Part shown: in pieces, positions 1,080-26,863 of the stretch | Layout of the letters: the number at the start of each line of letters is the position of its first letter | Position numbering within the stretch: the stretch's first letter is position 1 | Source: Tenericutes bacterium ADurb.BinA124 | Lineage (GTDB): Bacteria > Bacillota_I > Bacilli_A > ML615J-28 > CAG-698 | Direction: 5' to 3' | NCBI GenBank assembly: GCA_002068415.1 | Contig: MVZM01000004.1 | Location: forward strand, 3,445 to 67,444 | DNA length: 64,000 nucleotides | The notes under the pieces: model-generated | Seen by the model: only the letters and a program-made list of their open reading frames with translations | What the model was told of the DNA's origin: nothing | Databases searched by the model: none | Translations under genes and position numbers: made by a program

Positions 1080-1535
1080 CTACTTGACCTCCTTAAAACT
1101 AATCTTTAGTGCATCTTCTAAATGCTTTATATCAAAACCAAAATTCCTATATCCTTCAAGACATGTCTGAACATAGGCTTTACTTGGAATTCCTATTGTT
1201 CTTTCTTCATGCATAATGTAAATGAATGCTTTTGAATGAACCTTTAATCCTCTAAATGAGGTGAATTCAATTTCTAACTCTTTCTTATAGTAAAAACTAG
1301 GATATCCTTCATATCTATCAAGCGATAATTCATCGCTATCATCAACCTTCCAGACACCAATTGGCACAACCTTTCCTTTATGCTTTTCGACTGTTAAATA
1401 AGAACCGCTTTTACTTCCCTTAAATAAAAGTTCGTAATCTTTAAGTTCAAATCTTCCAACTGGTATCGCCTTAGGACATCTATATTTCATTTGCTCTACA
1501 TTGAGGTTAGAACCATATGCTAGATAATATTTCAT
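1080..1535 (-). CDS. Gamma-glutamylcyclotransferase-fold (GGCT/AIG2-like) protein
   Basis: N-terminal YGSNL signature (MKYYLAYGSNLNVEQMKYRCP) and an LDRYEGYP motif with the family's conserved Glu. Its start overlaps the amidoligase stop (TAATG). Confidence 0.75.
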   Translation of the reverse strand: MKYYLAYGSNLNVEQMKYRCPKAIPVGRFELKDYELLFKGSKSGSYLTVEKHKGKVVPIGVWKVDDSDELSLDRYEGYPSFYYKKELEIEFTSFRGLKVHSKAFIYIMHEERTIGIPSKAYVQTCLEGYRNFGFDIKHLEDALKISFKEVK

Positions 1536-2494
1536 TATGCTGCACCTCCAACTTGTGGTCTAACTCCACTTCTAAATGATGCATCACCACTTAGTCGTTT
1601 TGTTAAGAACTCTCTTGCAGTTGCAAATTCCTCACCAATGAACCCAAGTCTAAGTAGCCATGTTCTCATTGCGTATTTAGGGTTTTCGTGTTGTTGAGGT
1701 TTGCTAGATGCTCCTCTAACTTCTTTTGCCATCTCGCTTAAGGCTAAGCATAATTGAATGTAGCTTTTAAGTTGTCCAGCATGAAGTCCATTTTGCTTTC
1801 CATCTTTTGGTGCATCGAATTGGAATAATCTAAATTCAATTGTTCCTTTTGTAAAAGTCGCATGGAAGTTAAGCATATGGTATCTTGAGTCGTTGTAATG
1901 TTGGCTCCTTCCATAATCGCAATGTTGACTCTTGTACCAAACGTCTGCGAATGCACTCATTGTTTGAGGCTTTCTTTTATTTACTTGGCTTAAGAAGTTA
2001 GGGTCAACTGTTTTACAATAACGGTTCAATCTACCTCTATCAAGTTCTAAGGCTTCTGCAAGCAAGTTTTCGTGGCTTGCCATAATGTTTGCTAGGTTTC
2101 TCATCGTTCTTGGTGTGTGTCCGTTTGCTCCAATGTGAATGTGAACTCCACAACCTCTTGTTGCATCTGACTTAGCACCATTCTTTCTTAAGATTCTAAT
2201 AATCTCTTGTAAAGTTTCAATATCATCGTATTTTAGGATTGGTGTTACAAGTTCACATTTTTCATCTTCTGGTCCAGCAATTGAGCAGTCCCTTTGGAAT
2301 TTCCAAACCCTACCTTGTGGGTCTTTACAAGCCCAGGTCATGTAACCATATTCGCTTGCTGCATTCCAAGCTTGTGTTCCAAAGAATGATGCTATAAGGC
2401 TTGCAGCTTTCTTTCTTGTGATGTTGTTCATCTCAACCTCAACACCTATTGTTTGTTCCTTCATGTTTTGAATTTGTTTTTCAGTGTTTTTCAT
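1535..2494 (-). CDS. Glutamine-synthetase-like amidoligase (Amidoligase_2-type COOH-NH2 ligase)
   Basis: 319 aa with the motif string GVEVEM...CELVTP...CGVHIHIG...SRYHMLNFH...TIEFRLF...MRTWLLRLG. I recognise this from memory as the phage/ICE amidoligase family; it is not verified by a search. Confidence 0.7.
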   Translation of the reverse strand: MKNTEKQIQNMKEQTIGVEVEMNNITRKKAASLIASFFGTQAWNAASEYGYMTWACKDPQGRVWKFQRDCSIAGPEDEKCELVTPILKYDDIETLQEIIRILRKNGAKSDATRGCGVHIHIGANGHTPRTMRNLANIMASHENLLAEALELDRGRLNRYCKTVDPNFLSQVNKRKPQTMSAFADVWYKSQHCDYGRSQHYNDSRYHMLNFHATFTKGTIEFRLFQFDAPKDGKQNGLHAGQLKSYIQLCLALSEMAKEVRGASSKPQQHENPKYAMRTWLLRLGFIGEEFATAREFLTKRLSGDASFRSGVRPQVGGAA

Positions 2495-2607: not shown

Positions 2608-2982
2608 CTAATATTCAGTATCCAAACAATAGGTTTTACCAGCATTTATTTGATGTATGATATTCTCATATCTTTCTCTTTCTGCACCTTCACTTGAACT
2701 TGCAGCTTCAAAATAGAAATCCAAGGCTTCACGCTTTGAATCAAAGAGTTTTTCTTGCCCATAACAAATTGTTTTTATGACATCAATCTTCTTAACTTTA
2801 TCAACACCATCAACAACATTTAATGAACTACCGTTATCCCAGGAAACAAGTATTGAACCAATATCATCAACACCTACTACTGTTCCCTTTGTTCCAATAG
2901 GTGGTGCTTGAACATCATCCATTTTAAGAAGCTTGACTCTAGATCCAATTGGATACTTCTTTAAAAGTTCATCCTTTCTCAT
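2608..2982 (-). CDS. DUF4314-domain protein
   Basis: The N-terminal segment YPIGSRVKLLKMDDVQAPPIGTKGTVVGVDDIGSILVSWDNGSSLNV matches my memory of the DUF4314 module common on phages and conjugative elements. Confidence 0.6.
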   Translation of the reverse strand: MRKDELLKKYPIGSRVKLLKMDDVQAPPIGTKGTVVGVDDIGSILVSWDNGSSLNVVDGVDKVKKIDVIKTICYGQEKLFDSKREALDFYFEAASSSEGAERERYENIIHQINAGKTYCLDTEY

Positions 2983-3248: not shown

Positions 3249-4493
3249 TTATTCGAGGTTTTTAACCAAATCTTTATAAGGTATTTGTTCACCATTCCTA
3301 ATGCAATAAACACCATCTTCGTCATGAGTGTTATCTACATATCTACGCAATATTACTGACGCATATTTTTCATCAAGTTCCATCGTGTAGCAGATTCTAT
3401 TTGTTAACTCGCAAGCCATCAAAGTTGAACCACTACCACCAAATGTATCGATTACTATTGCGTTTTCTTGAGAACTGTTTTGAAGAGGATATGAAAGTAA
3501 ATCTAATGGTTTAGATGTTGGATGGTTTTCATTTCTCTTTGGCTTTTTAAAGTTCCATATAGTGGTTTGCTTTCTATCTGAATACCAACTGTGCTTACCA
3601 TTTTTTAAGAAACCATATAAAACAGGCTCATGTTGCCATTGATAATCGCTTCTTCCAAGAACTAAAGAATCCTTAACCCAAATGCAACATCCTGCAAGAT
3701 GGAATCCTGCATCAATGAATGCGGTTCTAAAATTAAGTCCTTCAGTATCAGCGTGGAAACAATAAGCTGACGCACCAGGTTCAGCATGTGCAACCATATT
3801 CTTAAATGCAGCAAGTAAGAACTGATAAAATTCTTCATTTTTAATGGAGTCATTTTGAATTGTAAGACCGCTAGACGACTTAAAAGATACACCATAAGGT
3901 GGATCAGTTAGGATCAAGTTTGCTCTCTTACCATCCATCAATCTATTAACATCATCAGGATTAGTAGCATCACCACAAACAAGACGGTGTCTACCAACAA
4001 CCCATATATCGCCTTTTTCAACGAACGATGCTTTTTCTAAAGCAGCTGTTAAATCATAATCATCATCTTCTACTTCAGTTTTTTCGCCTTTAAACAAATC
4101 CGTTAATTCATCTTCGTCAAATCCAGTCAATGAAAGGTCGAATGCCTCAGCTTCCAAAGCTTCTAATTCAACTTTTAAAAGTTCTTCATTCCATCCTGCA
4201 TCAAGAGCCATCCTATTATCAGCAATAATGTAAGCTTTCTTTTGTGCCTCAGTTAGATGTTCAACAAAAACACAAGGCACTTCGGTTAAGTGTTCAGCTT
4301 TTGCAGCTTCAACTCTTCCATGCCCTGCAATAATATTAAAATCTTTATCAACGATTACTGGATTTACAAAACCAAATTCACGTAGGCTTGCTCTTAACTT
4401 ATTTATTTGTTCAGGCGAGTGTGTACGTGCATTATTGATATAAGGGATTAATTTATTGATATCAACTAATTCAAATTTAGACGTTGTCTTCAT
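3249..4493 (-). CDS. ParB-like nuclease domain fused to an N6/N4 DNA methyltransferase
   Basis: N-terminal ParB-type motif (IIAGHGRVEAAK). Methyltransferase motifs ILTDPPYGV and DTFGGSGSTL. The likely ATG at 4493 overlaps the stop of the upstream gene (TAATG). Confidence 0.85.
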   Translation of the reverse strand: MKTTSKFELVDINKLIPYINNARTHSPEQINKLRASLREFGFVNPVIVDKDFNIIAGHGRVEAAKAEHLTEVPCVFVEHLTEAQKKAYIIADNRMALDAGWNEELLKVELEALEAEAFDLSLTGFDEDELTDLFKGEKTEVEDDDYDLTAALEKASFVEKGDIWVVGRHRLVCGDATNPDDVNRLMDGKRANLILTDPPYGVSFKSSSGLTIQNDSIKNEEFYQFLLAAFKNMVAHAEPGASAYCFHADTEGLNFRTAFIDAGFHLAGCCIWVKDSLVLGRSDYQWQHEPVLYGFLKNGKHSWYSDRKQTTIWNFKKPKRNENHPTSKPLDLLSYPLQNSSQENAIVIDTFGGSGSTLMACELTNRICYTMELDEKYASVILRRYVDNTHDEDGVYCIRNGEQIPYKDLVKNLE

Positions 4494-5275
4494 TAAAATA
4501 ACCCCCATTCAGCAAATTTCTCGAAACCACCTAAGTCGTGAATGAACTCACGTGCAATTTCTACTATTTCTTCATAAGGTCTATTGTCTATGTATTCATC
4601 TCCAATAGCACATGAAAGCTCGACAACTTGATTAGTAGCTTGTGCTTTTAAGAAACAATAAATATTGACAGACACGTCTGCCTTAGATAGATCCTTGCCA
4701 TGCAATCCACCACCAGTTACTGAATCAGCCATATCAGAACCAAGCTTTCTATTGGTAGCACCTGTATCTACATCAGTTCCTCCTGTCCATTCACCTAAAG
4801 GATTAATAATTGCTTTAGGAAATAATCTATGTAGTTCATAGTTTTTGGCATTGCTTTGGCAAATTACCAATTTTTCATTATCAAGAATGTATTTTCCATC
4901 ACTATGGAATCTGCTATAAAGATTTCTTGCAATTGTCGATAAACTTTTTTGTTCCTTAGTAAGTGGCACTCCTTTAAAGATGCCATTGTCCCCACATCTT
5001 ATTTTTTCTTCTTGGTTATCAGCTAGGTGCTTATCTTGAGGGACTTCAGTGTAATCTACATAAACTTTACCCGCGATTCTTCTTACAATATGGATCACAT
5101 CTTTTTTATCTAGATACACACTAGTTTCTGCAATCACATGACATTTGCCGTGTCCGATTAGAACTTCCACTGCAATTCTTGGATTTTTTTGATTTTTATA
5201 TGCTAAATCTACAATAGCACCTGCTATTCTATCTGCAATTTTATCTGGATGTTTTGGATTTACTTTTTCAAACAT
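4493..5275 (-). CDS. Truncated S-adenosylmethionine synthetase (MetK) homologue, 260 aa
   Basis: HPDKIADRIAGAIVD aligns to E. coli MetK HPDKIADQISDAVLD. GDNGI aligns to GDQGL. INPLGEWTGG...TNRK...GGGLHGKDLSKADVS aligns to INPTGRFVIGG...TGRK...GGGAFSGKDPSKVDRS. SCAIGDEY aligns to SYAIGVAEP. Confidence 0.75.
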   Translation of the reverse strand: MFEKVNPKHPDKIADRIAGAIVDLAYKNQKNPRIAVEVLIGHGKCHVIAETSVYLDKKDVIHIVRRIAGKVYVDYTEVPQDKHLADNQEEKIRCGDNGIFKGVPLTKEQKSLSTIARNLYSRFHSDGKYILDNEKLVICQSNAKNYELHRLFPKAIINPLGEWTGGTDVDTGATNRKLGSDMADSVTGGGLHGKDLSKADVSVNIYCFLKAQATNQVVELSCAIGDEYIDNRPYEEIVEIAREFIHDLGGFEKFAEWGLF

Positions 5276-6506
5276 TTTCTATAATCTCCTTTAAATTTTT
5301 AAATATTTCAGTTAGGCAATTAACAACGATGGAATTGCCTGCCATTTTATATAGTTGTGTATCCGATACGCCTGTCTTAAAGGCTCTATTGATATCTTCA
5401 TCACACCATCCCATCAAGCGAAAACACTCACGTGGAGTGAGGCGTCTTATGGAAATCAAATTATTTATATCTTTAGTAACAACTGCTACATCGTTAGGAC
5501 TAGTCTTAAGAGTTGGAATCTTATCTTTTTGAACCACACCACGTTTGTATTGAACTCGGTTGGTATAAATTCCATCTCCTTCTTTGGCAAGAGCATAACC
5601 TTTCTTTGTAGCTTCAGGGACAATGATTAAATTATCCTTTTGAACTGTAGTGATTGTGTTTGTATTTCCATCATCTTTTAGTTCTAGATGTTGCTTAATC
5701 TTTCCATCACTTTCATATCTTCCTCTTAGTGCAGCAGGGATTGGTTCAATAATGTAATTATCAGTAGGTCTACTTCCTGCATGAGTTGTAATTGTCCAGG
5801 CATAATCTTCGTCTTTGCCTTTAGGCCTAAACCTAAGCCCACGAATTAGACCGTTACGATTTTTCATGTCAGTAAAACAATCAATGAGCTTATTGGATAA
5901 AAAGTATTTTTCATCAACTTCATCTTCAAGTAAGTCACGAAGTTTAACCTTCAATTCTTGCTTTTCAGGAAACTTGAAATCGCCCTCATAATTAAGGATT
6001 GAAATCATAAAGCAACGTTCCCTGTTTTGAGGAACACCATAATCTTTAGCGTTGAGCACTTGATAAAAGTTCTTATATCCAAGCTCGGTTAAGAAATCCA
6101 ACCATTCTTGAAATTTTGGCATGAATTTTTTTGATATGATGTTCTTCACATTTTCCATTAAAAGGAATCTTGGTAGTTCGTTATTATCACGTGCAACTTC
6201 AAGCAATCTTTGAACTTCCCATAATAGAGATGATCCGGTATTTGAACCTTTATCAAAGCCTTTCATTCTTCCGCTGATTGAAATATCAGTGCATGGGAAT
6301 GAATAGGTAATCAAATCAGCATTAGGTAATCTTTGAATTGTTTTTATATCACCAAGATTTATCTTTTCACCATGCAATGCTTCATAAACTTTATTTGCGT
6401 AAGAATCAATATCACTTGTAGCAACGATTCTATGCTTTATTTCTGCCTCCTTTAATGCTTGTTCCTGAGCACCAATACCAGAAAATAGTTCTATGACTCT
6501 TAACAT
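5268..6506 (-). CDS. DNA (cytosine-5)-methyltransferase
   Basis: Motif I ELFSGIGA, motif IV FPCTDIS, motif VI MENV, motif VIII QNRER, motif X GNSIVV. The ATG at 6506 is preferred (GGAGG 7 nt upstream) over the track start at 6527. Confidence 0.9.
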   Translation of the reverse strand: MLRVIELFSGIGAQEQALKEAEIKHRIVATSDIDSYANKVYEALHGEKINLGDIKTIQRLPNADLITYSFPCTDISISGRMKGFDKGSNTGSSLLWEVQRLLEVARDNNELPRFLLMENVKNIISKKFMPKFQEWLDFLTELGYKNFYQVLNAKDYGVPQNRERCFMISILNYEGDFKFPEKQELKVKLRDLLEDEVDEKYFLSNKLIDCFTDMKNRNGLIRGLRFRPKGKDEDYAWTITTHAGSRPTDNYIIEPIPAALRGRYESDGKIKQHLELKDDGNTNTITTVQKDNLIIVPEATKKGYALAKEGDGIYTNRVQYKRGVVQKDKIPTLKTSPNDVAVVTKDINNLISIRRLTPRECFRLMGWCDEDINRAFKTGVSDTQLYKMAGNSIVVNCLTEIFKNLKEIIENV

Positions 6507-6525
6507 GTGCATTCCTCCTTCCATC

Positions 6526-6550
6526 AAAAAAGGCCACCCAATTGAGTGAC
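6526..6550 (-). terminator. Intrinsic terminator-like hairpin directly downstream of terS
   Basis: Minus strand reads GGTCACtcaattgGTGGCCttttt. Confidence 0.5.
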
Positions 6551-6579
6551 CTATGTGTATTTTTATAAATGTATGATCT

Positions 6580-7128
6580 TTATGTTTTTCTTGCTTTAAG
6601 CAAACGCTCCATTAAATCGTCCTGTGGATTAGCACCACCATAACCTACCGATGAGTTTTCTTTTACTACTTGGAATATCTGAAACCACACTTGATTTACT
6701 TGTTTCATAAAAGATTGGCTCATAGAAACATATGGACTCGCTATTGCGTTACCAGTTGTAGGATGTTTTGCAAGAAAACCGAATTCAGATATTGCTTCTT
6801 CGCACTGAATCCAACGAGAGACTGACATTGCATACTGTTCAAGCAATTGTGGACTTACTAATTTTTCACAGCCTTTATCCCTCAACCACTGCCATGTTTC
6901 TTTATAAACTTCTTCAGCGACTAAGTCTTTGCCGTTTTTTTGTTTTGCTTTTAAGTATTCCTTTACTGGTGGCATATCATCACCTATAAACTCAGCTGGT
7001 TCAGGAAGTAAAGTATCAAATTTTGCCTTTGATTTTGTTTTGCCTTCATTGATTTTTTCAATTAAAGGTTTTGATTTTCTACCACTTCCAGGACGATATC
7101 CACCTCGATTTGTACCATCTTTAGCCAT
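6580..7128 (-). CDS. terS: Phage terminase small subunit (P27-family-like)
   Basis: 182 aa with a basic N-terminus (GGYRPGSGRKSKP). The central pattern LVSPQLLEQYAMSVSRWIQCEEAISEFGF...GNAIASPYVSM is typical of P27-type TerS. The gene sits downstream of an HNH gene. Confidence 0.75.
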   Translation of the reverse strand: MAKDGTNRGGYRPGSGRKSKPLIEKINEGKTKSKAKFDTLLPEPAEFIGDDMPPVKEYLKAKQKNGKDLVAEEVYKETWQWLRDKGCEKLVSPQLLEQYAMSVSRWIQCEEAISEFGFLAKHPTTGNAIASPYVSMSQSFMKQVNQVWFQIFQVVKENSSVGYGGANPQDDLMERLLKARKT

Positions 7129-8254: not shown

Positions 8255-8671
8255 TCACACCTGGTCAATTTTTATTAGCTCTATAGCTTGGTCGTGTTTC
8301 CTTCTAACTGTCTTATCCGAATAATAAACTTTAGCGGCTATTTCGCTCCAAGTAAGCCAATCTATGTAACGATAAGTTAGAATCATTTGTAAGTCTTCAT
8401 CCTTAACTGTGTTGATTGCTTTTTCAATCTCCATTCTTACAAGACCAGCTTTCTTTTCTAATTCTTCCAACTCTTCTTCGGCTTCAATGCCTTTATAGAT
8501 CCACCTTACAAATGGAGCTTCATAACTTGGACTAGGATTATTGATTCTTTCACCATAACAAGGACCGGGAATGGATGAGGCTCTTTCATTACAAAAGTCG
8601 ATGTATTGCTTTTTCTTTTCTATCTTTTCCAAGATATTATGATATCTACATAAATAAGTCTTCTTATCCAT
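8255..8671 (-). CDS. Phage late transcriptional regulator with a sigma-70 region-4-like HTH (ArpU/RinA/DUF1492-like)
   Basis: C-terminal LTWSEIAAKVYYSDKTVRRKHDQAIELI. The gene lies immediately upstream of the packaging genes. Confidence 0.6.
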   Translation of the reverse strand: MDKKTYLCRYHNILEKIEKKKQYIDFCNERASSIPGPCYGERINNPSPSYEAPFVRWIYKGIEAEEELEELEKKAGLVRMEIEKAINTVKDEDLQMILTYRYIDWLTWSEIAAKVYYSDKTVRRKHDQAIELIKIDQV

Positions 8672-19184: not shown

Positions 19185-19220
19185 GGAACCAGATTATTAG
19201 TCTGATTCCTTTTCTTCTTC
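19185..19220. terminator. Bidirectional intrinsic terminator between the convergent 381-aa gene and the R2 gene
   Basis: An A-run, then GGAACCAGA-ttattag-TCTGATTCC (one mismatch), then a T-run. The hairpin includes the R2 stop codon. Confidence 0.6.
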
Positions 19221-20507
19221 TAGGTATTTTTCAATTTGTCTAACTAGTTCTTCTTTATCTTTTTGATGCTTAGATTCATAGTTATACATTAGATGCCTTA
19301 CATCAAGTACAATGCCCTGAATTCTTTCATAATTATCTAATTCAGCTTTAGTTTCCTTACGCCAGTCAGGAATAGCCTCTGCTACATTTGCAAGTTTCTC
19401 ACTTGTCCCGAATTCATTATTAGCCTTATTATAAGGCATGATAAATGCATTAAACAAATGGTAGTTATCTAGATGCTCTTTGTTTTTAACAAAGTCGCCA
19501 TACGTAATTTGCTTGTTAATATCCGATGAATTTGGAAGATGATCCATATTATTCGTAACACCATAACGATAATATTTAGCATCCAATACATAGAACTTAT
19601 TATTCAAAATCATAATTGAATCAGGTTCCAATGGATGCTTTTCTTTTGTCTTACCAGTTCTAGCAATCCATGTAGTTCTAGGAAAGTAATCCTCTTTATT
19701 AGGTTCACCAAAGACTTTATCAATTAGTTTTTCCCATACATGCTCAAAATGATCAGTTCCAAAGTAGAATAGTCTATCCGTTGTTTTTTCATCAAGATAT
19801 TTAATCATTGCTTTCATAGCTAAGAATAATCGCTTATCTTCAAGTATGTTAGTATGAAGAATTTTATAATCAAGCATTGAAAGATATTGATTCTTAACTA
19901 TTTTTAAAGCCTCTAAATCGATATTATATCTAGGGTCATTTGGCACAAAACTTACAAACAACCAGCCTAATTTTTGCATTGCTTCTTGAACACAATACTT
20001 ATTAATTTCAGTAATAAGCATATTCGCATTAGGAGATATCGCTCTTACTGTTTGCTTTAAATAAATTATTGATTGTCCATCAATATCGATATAAGGCATT
20101 TGATTTTTGATTGTTCTTGGCCAGTCGGTCTTACCACCAATATCAGTTTTATAAACAACCTCAGTTTCCATATAATATCCATTATGATCTAGATAATAGT
20201 TGATTACATCTAGATAGGCTTGGATTGGAAATGTGACAGTTTGTGGTGCTTCAAAACTTTTAAGAGCAAGCAACTTATCTTCTTTGTTTGTAAACTCAGC
20301 TAAAACTCTAAACAAATGTCTTATTTCAAGCCTTATATCATAATCATTATCAGGCAATTGATAACCTATTGGAAAGTAAACAACTGCACCTTGATCATCA
20401 GCTTTAACACCTACAAAGTTCTCACCATCTTCACCACTATTGACGTGGCAGCATTTCTTTATATCAACCTTAGGGTCATACATTTTAGTTTGTTTCGCTT
20501 GTTCCAT
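19197..20507 (-). CDS. McrC-like / LlaJI.R2-type restriction endonuclease subunit
   Basis: PD-(D/E)xK-like core FYVLDAKYYRY. The gene lies immediately downstream of the McrB-like GTPase. The ATG at 20507 (AGGTGA RBS) is preferred; the track start is 20549. Confidence 0.7.
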   Translation of the reverse strand: MEQAKQTKMYDPKVDIKKCCHVNSGEDGENFVGVKADDQGAVVYFPIGYQLPDNDYDIRLEIRHLFRVLAEFTNKEDKLLALKSFEAPQTVTFPIQAYLDVINYYLDHNGYYMETEVVYKTDIGGKTDWPRTIKNQMPYIDIDGQSIIYLKQTVRAISPNANMLITEINKYCVQEAMQKLGWLFVSFVPNDPRYNIDLEALKIVKNQYLSMLDYKILHTNILEDKRLFLAMKAMIKYLDEKTTDRLFYFGTDHFEHVWEKLIDKVFGEPNKEDYFPRTTWIARTGKTKEKHPLEPDSIMILNNKFYVLDAKYYRYGVTNNMDHLPNSSDINKQITYGDFVKNKEHLDNYHLFNAFIMPYNKANNEFGTSEKLANVAEAIPDWRKETKAELDNYERIQGIVLDVRHLMYNYESKHQKDKEELVRQIEKYLEEEKESD

Positions 20508-22824
20508 CGGCATCACCTGTAGCTTCATCCTTTGGTTTTGACTCATCAATCATTGTTCTTTTGATGTTATCAAGGAATATGTCAAATCTAGCATCACCCT
20601 TAGCTCCTAAGAATGATTTAATTATTGCTTCAAGTGAGTTATTTGTTCCATTATCACGAACATTGAATAGAGATTCACGATTAAACTTAAATGCATCATC
20701 CCATAAATACTTGATTACTTTTTCAGCAAATCTTCTATTCTCAAGTCTTGCATCTATTTGTTCTTGACCTGAACCAGTATCAGCTTTGTCATTGTACATC
20801 AAATCTTCTTCTACGACAAAATGAGTTCCAAGTCTCTTATCTTCAGCTGATGTTAATCTTACATTAGTATTAAGGATAATCTCATTAATAGTTTCTTGGA
20901 AAGCTCTCCATGTAACATTAGAATCAAGAATCTTGATATCAGCAAGCTCATCATTTTCTTTAAATGTATTCTCGATTAATCTCATATTCCATCTTCTTTG
21001 GAAAGCAGTATCTAGAGTAAATACATTTTGGTCGGATGTATTCATAGTACAAAGGATAGACATATTTGAAGGGATTCTAACCTTATGGTTTACATCCTCA
21101 TAAACAACTTTAGCAATATCAGCATTAGTAATTCCATACATACTAGTTCCATCAGGTGTTCTATCTAGTAATTGGAATATATCACCAAAAATTGCAGGAG
21201 CATTACCACGGTTGATTTCTTCAATAATTAAATAATATCTATTTTCAGGGTCTCTATATGCCTTTTTTAATAAAGTAGTGAAAGGTCCAGCTTCAAACTT
21301 ATATTGAATAGTCTTGCTTTCACCGCTTTCGTCAATTGATGGTAGGATTTGACCCACGAAGTCACTATATGTATAGTCAGGATGGAACACTAAACGTTCC
21401 ATTTTGTCTTCGTCTTTGCAATATTCAGTTTCGATTGTATAAGACTTACCAGCACCTGGAACGCCATAAAGAATAATGTTGCGTCCACCAGTAACTCTAT
21501 CTAATGAATCATAATCAATTACTTCACCTTTATCATAAAACTCTATTACTCTAACATAATCATCATATAATTCTTTTAATGTTTCGTTTGATTCTACTCC
21601 ATCATATAATGATAATTTAGATAAATCATATTCTTTCTCTAAAATTTTTGATATCTCATTTGATGGCTCCTTATCGCCTTCATAAACATCAATAAATAAG
21701 TATTTTATTTCTTTGGTATCATTATCAAATTTTGGCCTTACATTTATACCTGTCTCTGTTTTATTGATATAATTAACTTTTGAAAATGTGCTTTGATATC
21801 CAGCAATTATATTACAATCTAAAGTAAAAGCACCATAGTCTCTCCAATCTTTATATAATTCTCTAATTGCAGATCCAGGTTTATATCCTTGTCCTGAAGT
21901 TTTAGTTCCTTCTTCTAGTCCATTATTAATGTTCAACTGCTTAACAAACCATCCAACTAAATTTTTGAATTTTTGATAATTTTCATCAGCTTTTGAATCT
22001 TTATTTCCTTCATTAAAAGGATTTGACTCCCACAAAACTAAAGATGATATTGCCATACCATTTGCAACTGCATTAATAACATCTTCTTTATTATAAGATG
22101 AAGATTCTACGATATCCCTATATGTGAATTTGTGAGAGTTTGCATCCAATAATGGAGCATATTTTATGCCAAAAACCTGAGCGGCTTCCACTTCAGTTTT
22201 TCCTGCACTAATATTCGCATTCATTTCTGTATTGAATATATTTTTCACAGACTCTAAATCTACTTTTTTACCGTTTTCTTCCATTATTACATCCCTCCAA
22301 TTATCGATGATATTGATGCTAATTGTGTATCTTTCATCACTTTTAGTAATTTTAATATTTGTTATGGCACCTATAAACGTATGTCTAAAATCATCACCGT
22401 TTTTTAATGTGGTTGCACCATAAATTGGCTCATTAATTCTATAATCACTTTTGTTATTAAGAATTCTTATATATCTATCATCTTGAACATAGTCAAGAAC
22501 TAATTTTGCATCTTCTAGATTCATTGAAGCAAAACGAGAATAGATAGAATCAATTTTATCAAGAGGACCATGATACATTGATGTGTACTTTTGAATTATC
22601 AGTTTTACCATATTCAAATAATCCAAAAAAGATTTAACATCAATATAACAAATATGTTTCCCAAGAATAAAGTTTCTAATACTATCCTTTTCTTCCTGTT
22701 TATCTCCAATATAAAGACTAGCTTGACTTGAGCCACTTAGCCATTTAACTACAAATTCTCGTTCGCAATCACTTAATTTTAATACACCCTCAAGAATTGT
22801 TTTATCATTATTAAGTTTTAACAT
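20485..22824 (-). CDS. McrB-like AAA+ GTPase restriction subunit (LlaJI.R1-type) with a ~440-aa N-terminal extension
   Basis: Walker A ILYGVPGAGKSY. Walker B/EINR motif YYLIIEEINRGN. McrB signature CTMNTSDQNVFTLDTAFQRRW. Confidence 0.8.
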   Translation of the reverse strand: MLKLNNDKTILEGVLKLSDCEREFVVKWLSGSSQASLYIGDKQEEKDSIRNFILGKHICYIDVKSFLDYLNMVKLIIQKYTSMYHGPLDKIDSIYSRFASMNLEDAKLVLDYVQDDRYIRILNNKSDYRINEPIYGATTLKNGDDFRHTFIGAITNIKITKSDERYTISINIIDNWRDVIMEENGKKVDLESVKNIFNTEMNANISAGKTEVEAAQVFGIKYAPLLDANSHKFTYRDIVESSSYNKEDVINAVANGMAISSLVLWESNPFNEGNKDSKADENYQKFKNLVGWFVKQLNINNGLEEGTKTSGQGYKPGSAIRELYKDWRDYGAFTLDCNIIAGYQSTFSKVNYINKTETGINVRPKFDNDTKEIKYLFIDVYEGDKEPSNEISKILEKEYDLSKLSLYDGVESNETLKELYDDYVRVIEFYDKGEVIDYDSLDRVTGGRNIILYGVPGAGKSYTIETEYCKDEDKMERLVFHPDYTYSDFVGQILPSIDESGESKTIQYKFEAGPFTTLLKKAYRDPENRYYLIIEEINRGNAPAIFGDIFQLLDRTPDGTSMYGITNADIAKVVYEDVNHKVRIPSNMSILCTMNTSDQNVFTLDTAFQRRWNMRLIENTFKENDELADIKILDSNVTWRAFQETINEIILNTNVRLTSAEDKRLGTHFVVEEDLMYNDKADTGSGQEQIDARLENRRFAEKVIKYLWDDAFKFNRESLFNVRDNGTNNSLEAIIKSFLGAKGDARFDIFLDNIKRTMIDESKPKDEATGDADGTSETN

Positions 22825-23972
22825 TATTCGCCCTCCTCTTCAAAAACACCAGTATCTATTATATTTCTTAATATTGCTATTAGGACATCAACAACTATTG
22901 AATTTCCAGCTTGTTTATATGCTTGAGCTCTTGAAACAACTATTTTATAGTCATCTGTAAATCCCATTAATCTATGTGCTTCTCTTTCGGTAAGCATTCT
23001 AACTGATCCCAAGTTTTCTGTTCCATCAAATGATAAATAATTATCAACTCCAGCACGATGACGATTTCCCATAGTTTTTAACAATGTTCTTGCAATATCC
23101 TTATTAATTTCAACCTTTTGCACGAAAGTCTTTGTTCCAGTTTTCATAACATAATTATACAACTTTTGGCTTAAAGTATACTTTGCATCAGGAATTCCTG
23201 GTACGTTATCAAGTTGGATCTCACCTGCATTATTTGAAGTCATATGTCCCTCTGCGCAATAATTGATTGAAAAATCCTTCATTGTAAAATGTAATTGTCT
23301 TTGAATTGGTGGAAATTCAAATTCATCATTTAAATTTAAATCTCTTCTAAAACCTACAACAAACAATCTTCTTCTTGTTTGAGGAATTCCATAATCAGCT
23401 GCATTCAAAACATCAAATTTATAATCATAGCCTAGTTCATCAAAGACTTGCTTAATAACTCTCCAAGTATTACCCTTGTCATGATTTAAAAGATTTCTAA
23501 CATTTTCATATATAAATACTTTAGGATTGATTTCTTGCACCAATCTAGCAAACTCATAGAATAACGTTCCTCTAGTATCCTCTAGTCCAGCCTGAAAGCC
23601 AACGGAAGAGAAACTTTGGCATGGGCTTCCTCCAACGAATAAATCTACTTGATTTCTAAAATCCCTACCATCTAATAGTACTACATCTTGAAAATATCTA
23701 TTTTTAGAACACTGTGGGTAATTAGCTAAATAACTTTGTTCCACATAATTCTTTGAGCTTGTAATTGATGAATATAAATTGTCTACGTATTTTCTTTTTT
23801 CATCAATGCTATTTAGGTTTCTTACAATTTCACGTTCTTTTTCAATATCATAAGTCACATCTCGTTCGCCGTTATCACAAGCAAATACTATTTCATGATC
23901 TAATTTCAATCGTTTTATAGCAAATTCAATCGCACCAATACCACTAAAAACTGTAGCTAATTTAATCTTCAT
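22824..23972 (-). CDS. DNA (cytosine-5)-methyltransferase (second of a pair)
   Basis: FSGIGA, GGSPCQSFS, FIYENV, QTRRRLF and AGNSIVV motifs. Confidence 0.9.
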   Translation of the reverse strand: MKIKLATVFSGIGAIEFAIKRLKLDHEIVFACDNGERDVTYDIEKEREIVRNLNSIDEKRKYVDNLYSSITSSKNYVEQSYLANYPQCSKNRYFQDVVLLDGRDFRNQVDLFVGGSPCQSFSSVGFQAGLEDTRGTLFYEFARLVQEINPKVFIYENVRNLLNHDKGNTWRVIKQVFDELGYDYKFDVLNAADYGIPQTRRRLFVVGFRRDLNLNDEFEFPPIQRQLHFTMKDFSINYCAEGHMTSNNAGEIQLDNVPGIPDAKYTLSQKLYNYVMKTGTKTFVQKVEINKDIARTLLKTMGNRHRAGVDNYLSFDGTENLGSVRMLTEREAHRLMGFTDDYKIVVSRAQAYKQAGNSIVVDVLIAILRNIIDTGVFEEEGE

Positions 23973-25065
23973 AAATGTTCACCGCCTCAAAAATCTTTTT
24001 GTAAATTGCTTCAAGAACATTTACAACAATTGAATTTCCTGCTTGTCGATATGCAGGCACATTTGGAACAACAACATTAAAATCATCGCTAAACCCCATC
24101 AATCTTAAACATTCTCTATAAGTCAACTGTCTAATGACTCCACGTCTTCCATTCCATTCTGAAACATATGCTCTTTCAAGTATTTTTTCATTATTTGCAA
24201 TTTCTTCATATGGAACAAAAACAAAATCTCCATTCCAATTAAACTGCTGATTTGCTTTTTGCGTTTGGATGATTTCAGGATTAATTCTTGCTCTATTTCT
24301 ATACTTAGGATTAGTTACGAATTCAAACCCTTTTTTTCCTAAATAATGTTTGACTTCGACATCGTTATTAGCCTCAAGATAGTCAAAGAATTTTGTCGTT
24401 AAATTAATAGGTTGAGGAAATTCAAAATTGACATTCTTATCTTTAAACCCAACAACGAATAGTCTTTGTCTATCCTGTGGAATTCCAAAATCCTTGGCAT
24501 TCAATAATGATTTATAAACTTTATATCCTAGAGAATCAAAAACCGAATTAATAACTTTCCATGTATTTCCTTTGTCATGAGTAAGCATTCCAGGAACATT
24601 CTCGTAGATGAACACTTTAGGTTTGATTTCTTTTATTAGTCTTGCGTAATCATAAAAAAGAGTTCCTCTTGTATCTTCGAGACCAGCTCTTTTTCCAATA
24701 ATAGAGAAACTTTGGCATGGACTTCCACCAACTAAAATATCAACCTTTCCTTTATATGGCTTACCATCAAGAAATCTAATATCCTCATACCAGTTTTTCT
24801 CATTAATATCATAGTTAGCGAAATAACTATCCTTCATATAATTGTGTTTTCCACTTTTTGAGTAAATACTTTTTATATATTCATTAGCTTCATCGTTATT
24901 TAATGATGCGATTTCAGCTTTTATTTCATCAACATCTTTTTTGATTTCAACTTCTCCATTATCACAAGCAAATACTATATTATGTTTTACTCCCATTTTA
25001 TGTAAAGCTTGTTCTGGAGCACCTATGCCACTAAAAACAGTAGCAATATTAATAAAATCTTTCAT
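23962..25065 (-). CDS. DNA (cytosine-5)-methyltransferase (first of a pair)
   Basis: FSGIGA, GGSPCQSFS, FIYENV, QDRQRLF and AGNSIVV motifs. Confidence 0.9.
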   Translation of the reverse strand: MKDFINIATVFSGIGAPEQALHKMGVKHNIVFACDNGEVEIKKDVDEIKAEIASLNNDEANEYIKSIYSKSGKHNYMKDSYFANYDINEKNWYEDIRFLDGKPYKGKVDILVGGSPCQSFSIIGKRAGLEDTRGTLFYDYARLIKEIKPKVFIYENVPGMLTHDKGNTWKVINSVFDSLGYKVYKSLLNAKDFGIPQDRQRLFVVGFKDKNVNFEFPQPINLTTKFFDYLEANNDVEVKHYLGKKGFEFVTNPKYRNRARINPEIIQTQKANQQFNWNGDFVFVPYEEIANNEKILERAYVSEWNGRRGVIRQLTYRECLRLMGFSDDFNVVVPNVPAYRQAGNSIVVNVLEAIYKKIFEAVNIYED

Positions 25066-25624: not shown

Positions 25625-25974
25625 TGGTGGAATAGAGGGGAGTCGAACCCCTGTCCAAACTACAATCCATATTTATTTCTACATGCTTATTTTATTGTCT
25701 TATTTTCACTGCTTATCTAACAATAAACAAATAGACAATCAGCTAACCTTATAATCTCGAATCAAAGAGCCAAGGTAAACTCAAAGACTCATCCCTTAAT
25801 TCTGAGCCCGTTTATAAAACTTAAGGGGGATTCTACAACAGGCATGCTACTTATTTAATTAGGCAGCAAAAGATAAATTTTGATTTGCGGTTAATTTAAC
25901 CTCGGCGTTTTTACATGCGCAACCATGGCATGCTACAAATACTTCAAATAGCCTGTCGAAACCATGACTATCCC
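25625..25974 (-). ncRNA. ssrA: tmRNA (SsrA), about 350 nt
   Basis: The 5' end GGGATAGTCATGGTTTCGACAGG pairs with the 3' end GGACAGGGGTTCGACTCCCCTCTATTCCACCA, including the G3:U70 wobble. An internal tag ORF ends ...GCA AAT CAA AAT TTA TCT TTT GCT GCC TAA (..ANQNLSFAA*). The gene is adjacent to smpB. Confidence 0.9.
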
Positions 25975-25997: not shown

Positions 25998-26405
25998 CTA
26001 AAAAAAGATTAATCCAATTAAAAGGTAAACAGTTTTAAACAAAACGACGGCCATAGCCAAATAAGCCATCCATAAACCGACATTCCTTGTCGGTTCCAGT
26101 TTAACTTTGGTTGGTTTTTTCGCAAACCACATCGTCATGATAATGAAAACAACAACCAAAACAAAATACAAAACCACGAAACCGGGATGAAACAAAAACA
26201 AAATCATCAACAATAAAGAAGCTAGTCCAAATAAAAACGTCAAAATCGGAAAATCAATGAGTAAATTTTTGTCTTTTTCGCTAACTTCCGGATCGGCTTT
26301 TTGATTAAACAAAGCGGCGTATTTTTCATCTTCTTCAAAATCAAAGCCACATTCACAAACTTTGGTCTCATCACTCACTTCTTTGCCACAGCGTTTACAT
26401 TTCAT
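25998..26405 (-). CDS. Zinc-ribbon membrane protein (hypothetical)
   Basis: N-terminal CKRCG...CECG motif followed by several hydrophobic segments. Confidence 0.55.
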   Translation of the reverse strand: MKCKRCGKEVSDETKVCECGFDFEEDEKYAALFNQKADPEVSEKDKNLLIDFPILTFLFGLASLLLMILFLFHPGFVVLYFVLVVVFIIMTMWFAKKPTKVKLEPTRNVGLWMAYLAMAVVLFKTVYLLIGLIFF

Positions 26406-26863
26406 ATCCGTCCACGAACCTTATTGATTTTCTTGATTTCCGTCTTGATGGCTTCCTGACGCAAGTCTTCACGCTTGTCATAGTTCTTCTTTCCCTTACA
26501 AAGAGCTACTTCCACTTTCGCCAGTCCTTCACGTAAATAGACCGACAAAGGAATCAATGTTAAACCGTCCTGAGTTAATTTAGCCGCCAATTTGCGAATT
26601 TCGCTTTTGTGGGCCAAGAGTTTCCTCGTTCTTGTTTCCTGATGGTTAAAGATATTGCCCTTGTCATACGGAGCAATATGCATATTGATAATAATTAATT
26701 CCTGTTTTTCAATACGGCAATAAGCATCCGCAATGGCAACTTTGCCGGCCCGAATGGATTTTATTTCCGTGCCGGTAAGCACAATCCCGCATTCATACTT
26801 ATCCAGGATAAAGTAATCATGGGCGGCCTTTTTGTTGCGCGCGACGATTCGACTTTTTTCCAC
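26402..26863 (-). CDS. smpB: SsrA-binding protein SmpB
   Basis: IARNKKAAHDYFI...GTEIKS...YLREGLAKVEVALCKGKK pattern; next to ssrA. Confidence 0.95.
   Translation of the reverse strand: MEKSRIVARNKKAAHDYFILDKYECGIVLTGTEIKSIRAGKVAIADAYCRIEKQELIIINMHIAPYDKGNIFNHQETRTRKLLAHKSEIRKLAAKLTQDGLTLIPLSVYLREGLAKVEVALCKGKKNYDKREDLRQEAIKTEIKKINKVRGRI

Follow-up and report, generated by a model that had tools for sequence, protein, structure and literature searches.

Canonical methionine adenosyltransferases (MAT), the S-adenosylmethionine (SAM) synthetases typified by E. coli MetK and human MAT2A, have a common three-domain fold. Related genes are also known from phages: among Ca. Heliusvirales genomes, 67% carry dcm and 58.9% a SAM synthetase gene (PMC11283538), metK and dcm are a reported pair of phage auxiliary genes (10.1101/2021.01.05.425418), and a protein shortened with respect to its E. 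coli counterpart had been remarked on in the streptococcal prophage 12/111phiA (PMC8223999). Another phage protein acting on the SAM economy of the host, the SAM lyase of T3 (T3 SAMase), destroys SAM and sequesters MetK (PMC8406200). We analysed a 64,000-nucleotide (nt) stretch of contig MVZM01000004.1 from Tenericutes bacterium ADurb.BinA124, hereafter the window, in which phage-derived DNA carries the gene for a 260-residue MetK-like protein between a gene for a dcm-type C5 cytosine DNA methyltransferase (dcm) and one for a ParB-fused N6/N4 DNA methyltransferase (ParB-methyltransferase). The MetK-like protein is probably a miniature, active SAM synthetase that supplies the SAM-consuming enzymes of the phage. 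Its gene belongs to an abundant phage family that has been noticed before, of which it is an ordinary representative, and does not amount to a new kind of system.

The closest described relatives are the phage MetK proteins of Ca. Heliusvirales, of the Streptococcus Javan prophages and of Gardnerella phage vB_Gva_AB1 (ORF19), which form a family with the window's protein (phrog_1569, a PHROG whose function is listed as unknown) at 65–80% identity over the full length. The MetK of S. agalactiae 12/111phiA is placed in this family by its published description and by the Javan matches, not by sequence. Gene order in these relatives is the same as in the window (HNH endonuclease, small terminase (terS), MetK-like protein, ParB-methyltransferase), except for an additional dcm that separates terS from metK in the window's phage, an arrangement seldom seen elsewhere. 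The comparison with T3 SAMase is one of opposites: its fold is unrelated, its effect on SAM is the reverse of that proposed here, and T3 keeps its DNA unmethylated whereas the window's phage has several methyltransferases. As to the ParB-methyltransferase, it has exactly the architecture of the fusions between a ParB-CTPase fold and an N6_N4 methyltransferase that are described as enriched in phages and prophages in the available passages of PMC12704722; those passages make no link between such fusions and a SAM synthetase gene. The enzyme was also considered as a relative of M.EcoGII, a non-specific adenine methylase whose SAM demand would be huge, and this candidate was dropped, M.EcoGII being a 349-residue enzyme without extra domains (PMC5778455).

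Sequence searches with the MetK-like protein match SAM synthetases only, weakly and partially (phmmer against the PDB, E ~1e-11), and the N-terminal MAT domain of Pfam, PF00438, passes its threshold (45.7 versus 33.1 bits). A first AlphaFold2 (AF2) run on 38 close homologues (78–93% identity) gave a poor model, with a predicted local distance difference test score (pLDDT) of 63 and a template modelling score (TM) of ~0.4 in Foldseek; it was replaced by a second run on a diverse alignment spanning 39–93% identity, whose model underlies all our statements on the fold. This second model has a pLDDT of 95.6 and a predicted TM (pTM) of 0.93. Its top Foldseek matches in the PDB are all MAT/MetK structures, with E-values down to 2.5e-18 and query-normalised TM of 0.68–0.79, and the canonical enzymes (E. 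coli MetK; PDB 7ll3, 7loo and 1xra; human MAT2A) are found at 1e-16 to 1e-18; against the viral structures of BFVD, there was no match at E <= 0.001. The predicted secondary structure comprises three alpha-beta-beta-alpha-beta units, which indicates that all three MAT domains are kept. At 260 residues versus 384, the protein is 124 residues (32%) shorter than E. coli MetK, i.e. by about one third, as an earlier note on this DNA had stated, and only ~20–33% identical to it. The difference is made up of about ten internal deletions spread over the three domains and of ~40 absent C-terminal residues. As judged from the model, the protein is thus pruned in each of its three domains, by loss of loops, helices and hairpins, and does not lack any subdomain. 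The word "truncated" used in the earlier note, which supposed a missing subdomain that structural mapping would locate, is therefore misleading: the three domains persist in pruned form in the AF2 and Foldseek analyses, and every substrate-binding motif is present.

Indeed, all eight motifs listed for substrate binding by E. coli MetK (GHPDK, acE, gEit, GDqG, DaK, TgRK, sGKd and kvDrs; list after Komoto 2004 in 10.1101/2021.01.05.425418) occur in the MetK-like protein, in the forms kHPDK, avE, aEts, GDnG, DgK, TnRK, hGKd and kaDvs, so that this phage-borne protein shares them with the housekeeping enzymes. The hallmarks by which the protein had originally been recognised as a MetK relative are likewise all located: HPDKIAD at residues 9–15, GDNG at 95–98, and the GGGxxGKDxSKxD loop, which reads GGGLHGKDLSKAD, at 188–200. 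With E. coli MetK in its mature numbering, the equivalences are H9, D11 and K12 with His14, Asp16 and Lys17; E37 with Glu42 and E50 with Glu55; Q80 with Gln98 and D96 with Asp118; D126 and K128 with Asp163 and Lys165 (our assignment, from their place where a hairpin strand begins); W163 with Phe230 and D170 with Asp238; R176 and K177 with Arg244 and Lys245; and K194, K198 and D200 with Lys265, Lys269 and Asp271. The alignment thus shows no essential catalytic residue to be lost. Among 321 unique sequences of the family, the catalytic positions are 95–99.7% conserved, compared to a mean of 71% per column, and the pairwise ratio of nonsynonymous to synonymous substitution rates (dN/dS) is 0.06–0.17. 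The MetK-like gene is under purifying selection.

The surroundings of the gene were compared in 84 viral loci, which are its closest relatives and are not independent of each other. A ParB(-methyltransferase) gene lies directly downstream in 75 of them, and the junction is tight: the two genes overlap by 1 nt (T[AG]ATG) in 35 of these 75 loci and by 4 nt in 7, and the gap is at most 14 nt in 69. Directly upstream, most viral loci have terS, ending at most 17 nt before the start of the MetK-like gene. Only 3 of the 84 have dcm between terS and metK, a different C5 methyltransferase located after the ParB fusion being commoner, and at a locus encoding an identical MetK-like protein (L167:406-3008) an ISAZ013-type DDE transposase interrupts dcm but leaves the MetK-like and ParB-methyltransferase genes whole. 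The conserved pair therefore consists of the MetK-like gene followed by the ParB-methyltransferase gene, and dcm is a variable member of the block; the three-gene unit described in the earlier note is not the conserved one. The window contains the cassette made of terS, the MetK-like gene and the ParB-methyltransferase gene, with dcm inserted after terS. Since terS and the MetK-like gene are only ~4 nt apart in relatives without dcm at this site, dcm looks like an inserted cassette that brought along the hairpin lying upstream of it.

A set of loci dereplicated by species gave a broader view. A methyltransferase related to those of the window adjoins the MetK-like gene in 33 of 60 loci, and a scan of 26 larger neighbours in the remaining loci revealed six radical SAM proteins (four with a SPASM domain) and three DUF1848 proteins, several of the others being chromosomal-looking or unrelated. 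The presence of the MetK-like gene beside SAM-consuming enzymes is a recurring theme across loci.

The family is phage- or prophage-borne across several phyla. Clustered at 90% identity, it numbers at least 8000 clusters, almost every one of which is exactly 260 residues long among the matches listed, and an exhaustive search of the 50%-identity representatives returned 1476 matches at E <= 1e-3, including many fragments and some longer proteins with loop insertions. In GenBank phage records, the gene is found in Ca. Heliusvirales gut phages, nine Streptococcus Javan prophages, a Gardnerella phage and a Terrisporobacter phage (65–80% identity). Data with one genome per species add Clostridia, Erysipelotrichales, Bacilli, Tissierellia, Gardnerella, Prevotella and other bins (62–75% identity); some of these matches are metagenome bins, whose taxonomy is only as good as the binning. 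At least 53 public contig blocks and a 50-kb IMG/VR viral genome encode the identical MetK-like protein. As for homologues of this length, they are not the housekeeping MetK of a lineage, a possibility that had been considered; they constitute an ordinary, very common phage-lineage gene that is already in the literature (PMC8223999, PMC11283538, 10.1101/2021.01.05.425418). Annotation of the gene is inconsistent: 24 of 27 GenBank phage records label it "hypothetical protein", and KEGG-based surveys call it SAM synthetase. Among the long representatives of the family, which display loop insertions, a tandem duplication, a possible intein or chimeric contigs, no fusion of MetK to a methyltransferase, which would have pointed to a complex of the two, was found. 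The possible intein is an insertion of ~320 residues exactly within the catalytic GGGL/HGKD loop of P0121 (582 residues), with Cys at its start and Asn-Cys at its end; it is a candidate by these boundaries and has no match to an intein domain in Pfam.

Private SAM supply for phage methylation, one of two opposite roles put forward in the earlier note, is the reading best supported by the fold, the conservation of the motifs, the selection on the gene and its adjacency to SAM users. The 260-residue protein would be a catalytically complete class-I methionine adenosyltransferase, forming the usual MAT dimer and producing SAM from ATP and methionine. The gene lies within the packaging block, after terS and, in relatives, ahead of the large terminase gene; it is therefore probably expressed together with the packaging genes, late in lytic growth. 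Many Firmicutes keep their own metK in check through SAM riboswitches and product inhibition. Host SAM may therefore be limiting, and the MetK-like protein would add to the pool of methyl donor from which the SAM users of the phage draw, so that progeny DNA would be methylated before packaging. The main consumer would be the ParB-methyltransferase translated directly behind it and, in the window's phage, the upstream dcm product could be a further one.

Several observations weigh against such an active synthetase. The central and C-terminal MAT domains (PF02772 and PF02773) have no Pfam match in the MetK-like protein, which also fails the MetK equivalog TIGR01034 (49.3 bits for a cutoff of 309.4); with PF00438 alone passed, the protein is to be seen as a shortened, outlying branch of MetK rather than as a standard equivalog. 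MAFFT and hhalign put its DGK motif on DDGK 176–179 of E. coli MetK, and not on Asp163/Lys165. In the divergent members P0132, P0194, P0227 and P0239 (39–52% identity), residues of HPDK, RK or GGG are replaced; these four proteins keep the C-terminal GGFEKLAEWGL motif and may be pseudo-enzymes with another role. Furthermore, 27 of the 60 dereplicated loci (both flanks available) have no adjoining methyltransferase, and radical SAM or DUF1848 proteins are present in only some of these. Finally, no enzymatic assay or biochemical characterisation of a short phage MetK was found in the searchable literature. As regards DGK, we rejected its equivalence with the DDGK hairpin turn, which the automatic alignments yield over residues 104–150: the model shows a helix and then a two-strand hairpin starting from G127. 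DGK opens strand 1 in the model as well as in longer members of the family (e.g. P0148, where CQSHA on strand 2 matches E. coli STQHS), which argues for D126 and K128 being the counterparts of Asp163 and Lys165.

The opposite role contemplated in the earlier note is that of a defective subunit: the short protein would co-assemble with host MetK into inactive hetero-oligomers, thereby lowering SAM and disarming SAM-dependent defences. Since MAT active sites span the dimer interface, mixed dimers are conceivable, and the pruned surface regions could change oligomerisation; the heteropolymer of T3 SAMase and MetK provides a precedent (PMC8406200, 10.1101/2023.02.27.530186), PDB 8bb1 being among the Foldseek matches of the model. 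A dominant-negative effect requires a defect, however, and no catalytic residue is gone, the catalytic positions being the best conserved ones of the family. Moreover, SAM depletion would starve the SAM consumers to which the gene is linked in most loci. Identity remains at 62–80% among phages of Firmicutes, Actinobacteria, Bacteroidota and others, which is not what co-evolution with the MetK of one host would lead one to expect, although the conservation of the MetK interface itself weakens this last argument. We therefore regard poisoning of host MetK as unsupported and very improbable. It is unlikely, albeit less so, that the gene serves lysogenic conversion, in which a prophage copy expressed in the lysogen would alter host physiology (polyamines, AI-2, cell envelope, aggregation, biofilm). 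This is the role proposed for S. agalactiae 12/111phiA, where plasmid-borne metK gave partial restoration (PMC8223999); that complementation was only partial and, according to its authors, confounded by secondary mutations. The position of the gene amid late genes, after terS and downstream of a DUF1492/sigma-like regulator, is atypical for a moron expressed during lysogeny, and its conserved linkage is with methyltransferase and terminase genes. Lysogenic conversion also requires an active enzyme and is thus compatible with SAM supply.

The MAT scaffold could also have acquired an altered chemistry, using another nucleotide or amino acid as substrate to make a SAM analogue for some unusual DNA modification, or having escape from product inhibition as its chief adaptation. 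Compared to E. coli MetK, the gating-loop region (residues 80–96) is indeed shortened by 4 residues, and it is here that the pLDDT of the model is lowest (~80–87); the TNRK and GDNG motifs contain Gly-to-Asn and Gln-to-Asn changes, respectively, and the flanking DUF4314, amidoligase and GGACT-family genes are of unknown role. Yet every residue through which E. coli MetK contacts methionine, adenine, ribose, triphosphate or the metal ions is conserved, and no data indicate any specific alternative substrate, which makes this explanation quite improbable. A more far-reaching version of SAM supply, which we consider conceivable though doubtful, is that the miniature MAT and the ParB-methyltransferase work as a physical pair, with SAM made beside, or channelled to, a methyltransferase whose ParB-fold domain would load it onto phage DNA, and that the 260-residue enzyme is a portable SAM-supply module for any SAM consumer as well as the smallest SAM synthetase known in nature. 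If the pair were physical, phage genomes could be methylated before packaging even when host SAM is low; if the module were portable, it could be attached to methyltransferases, radical SAM/SPASM enzymes and DUF1848 proteins.

In the direction of transcription (minus strand), the block of the window reads terS, dcm, the MetK-like gene and the ParB-methyltransferase gene (see the table), and the MetK-like gene is tightly packed with the methyltransferase genes, as previously described. Its ATG overlaps the stop codon of dcm (ATGTTTGA at 5275-5268) and its own stop codon overlaps the ATG of the ParB-methyltransferase gene (TAATG at 4495-4491), both junctions reading as claimed. Because each gene has its own Shine–Dalgarno sequence, these overlaps permit translational coupling but do not prove equimolar synthesis; the statement that the three proteins are made stoichiometrically went beyond what the sequence can establish. 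Gene callers differ on the start of the ParB-methyltransferase, giving either 414 residues (from the ATG of TAATG) or 419 (from an in-frame ATG at 4508). We favour the former because a TAATG or TGATG start is found in 35 of the 75 relative loci and because GGGGG stands at 4502-4506. For dcm, the ATG at 6506 is a likelier start than a TTG at 6527. The DUF4314, Amidoligase_2 and GGACT genes that follow the methyltransferase block are syntenic in many relatives, where they lie between terS and the large terminase gene.

Features of the window and, in the last six rows, neighbours of the MetK-like gene in related loci
Feature	Location	Strand	Remarks
GGACT/AIG2-like family protein	1080-1535	-	last of the listed block
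Amidoligase_2 protein	1535-2494	-	downstream of DUF4314 gene
DUF4314 protein	2608-2982	-	downstream of methyltransferase block
Small open reading frame (ORF)	between ParB-methyltransferase and DUF4314 genes	-	
ParB-methyltransferase (ParB-fold N-terminal domain and beta-class N6/N4 DNA methyltransferase), 414 residues	3249..4493	-	PF02195 E 5e-07; PF01555 E 2.4e-23; phrog_498 E 4.4e-180; motifs GHGR, DPPY, FGGSG; ATG 4493, stop 3249; Shine–Dalgarno GGGGG 4502-4506
MetK-like/ParB-methyltransferase junction TAATG	4491..4495	-	1-nt overlap of stop and start
MetK-like protein (predicted miniature methionine adenosyltransferase), 260 residues	4493..5275	-	PF00438 E 9.9e-12; phrog_1569 E 1.3e-71 (residues 1-260 on profile positions 4-337 of 346); ATG 5275, TAA 4493; Shine–Dalgarno GGAG 5286-5289
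dcm/MetK-like junction ATGTTTGA	5268..5275	-	8-nt overlap of start and stop
dcm-type C5 cytosine DNA methyltransferase, 412 residues	5268..6506	-	PF00145 E 9.5e-69; TIGR00675 E 1.8e-62; long variable region (~150 residues); ATG 6506, TGA 5268; AGGAGG 6514-6519, 7 nt 5' of ATG
Candidate terminator-like hairpin and T run	6531..6552	-	in 73-nt terS-dcm gap; consensus match only
Small terminase (terS)	6580..7128	-	PF05119 E 1.5e-08
Two HNH endonucleases	between regulator and terS	-	
DUF1492/sigma-like regulator	8671..8255	-	farthest upstream in listed gene order
ORF, 239 residues	16925-17644	-	no Pfam match
ORF, 381 residues	18031-19176	+	no Pfam match
LlaJI-type restriction-modification cluster	19197-25065	-	
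RE_LlaJI	19197-20549	-	
AAA_5 McrB-like ATPase	20485-22824	-	
Two C5 methyltransferases of LlaJI-type cluster	22824-23972, 23962-25065	-	
Transfer-messenger RNA (tmRNA) gene	25625-25974	-	tag ANQNLSFAA
smpB	26402-26863		followed by RNase R, Lon, ClpX and trigger factor
Radical SAM neighbour (PF04055), ~455 residues	L121:3341-4705		SPASM
Radical SAM neighbour (PF04055), ~455 residues	L136:1171-2541		
Radical SAM neighbour (PF04055), ~455 residues	L148:3818-5194		SPASM
Radical SAM neighbour (PF04055), ~455 residues	L149:1772-3223		SPASM
Upstream neighbour	L113:1089-2396		weak radical SAM match
DUF1848 neighbour	L103:2160-2996		

Phage DNA extends to the left of the tmRNA gene and runs off the start of the window. 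From this gene rightward, smpB and the genes for RNase R, Lon, ClpX and trigger factor mark the host chromosome. The tmRNA gene directly adjoins phage-derived DNA, which points to the 3' end of ssrA as the probable integration site; an integrase could not be recognised in the vicinity of the tmRNA gene. No canonical metK was found in the window, which is uninformative as only 38 kb of host DNA is present. The LlaJI-type cluster lies between the tmRNA gene and the phage early genes and is therefore probably prophage cargo. Its two C5 methyltransferases have only the catalytic core in common with the late-operon dcm product, at 25–26% identity, which gives no indication of a shared specificity.

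To what was already reported on phage metK genes, the present analysis adds the structural reading of a protein that is pruned and not truncated, a quantification of its conservation, the identification of the ParB fusion, rather than dcm, as the conserved partner, and the radical SAM and DUF1848 neighbours. If active, the MetK-like protein would be a minimal SAM synthetase provided by nature, smaller by one third than every MAT characterised so far, and would show which parts of the MAT fold are dispensable, a matter of interest for enzymology and for SAM-regeneration biocatalysis. Its activity would likewise account for the rank of metK and dcm as the commonest auxiliary genes of Ca. Heliusvirales, and would mean that very common temperate phages of the gut and of streptococci pay for their own DNA methylation, the opposite of the SAM destruction practised by T3.

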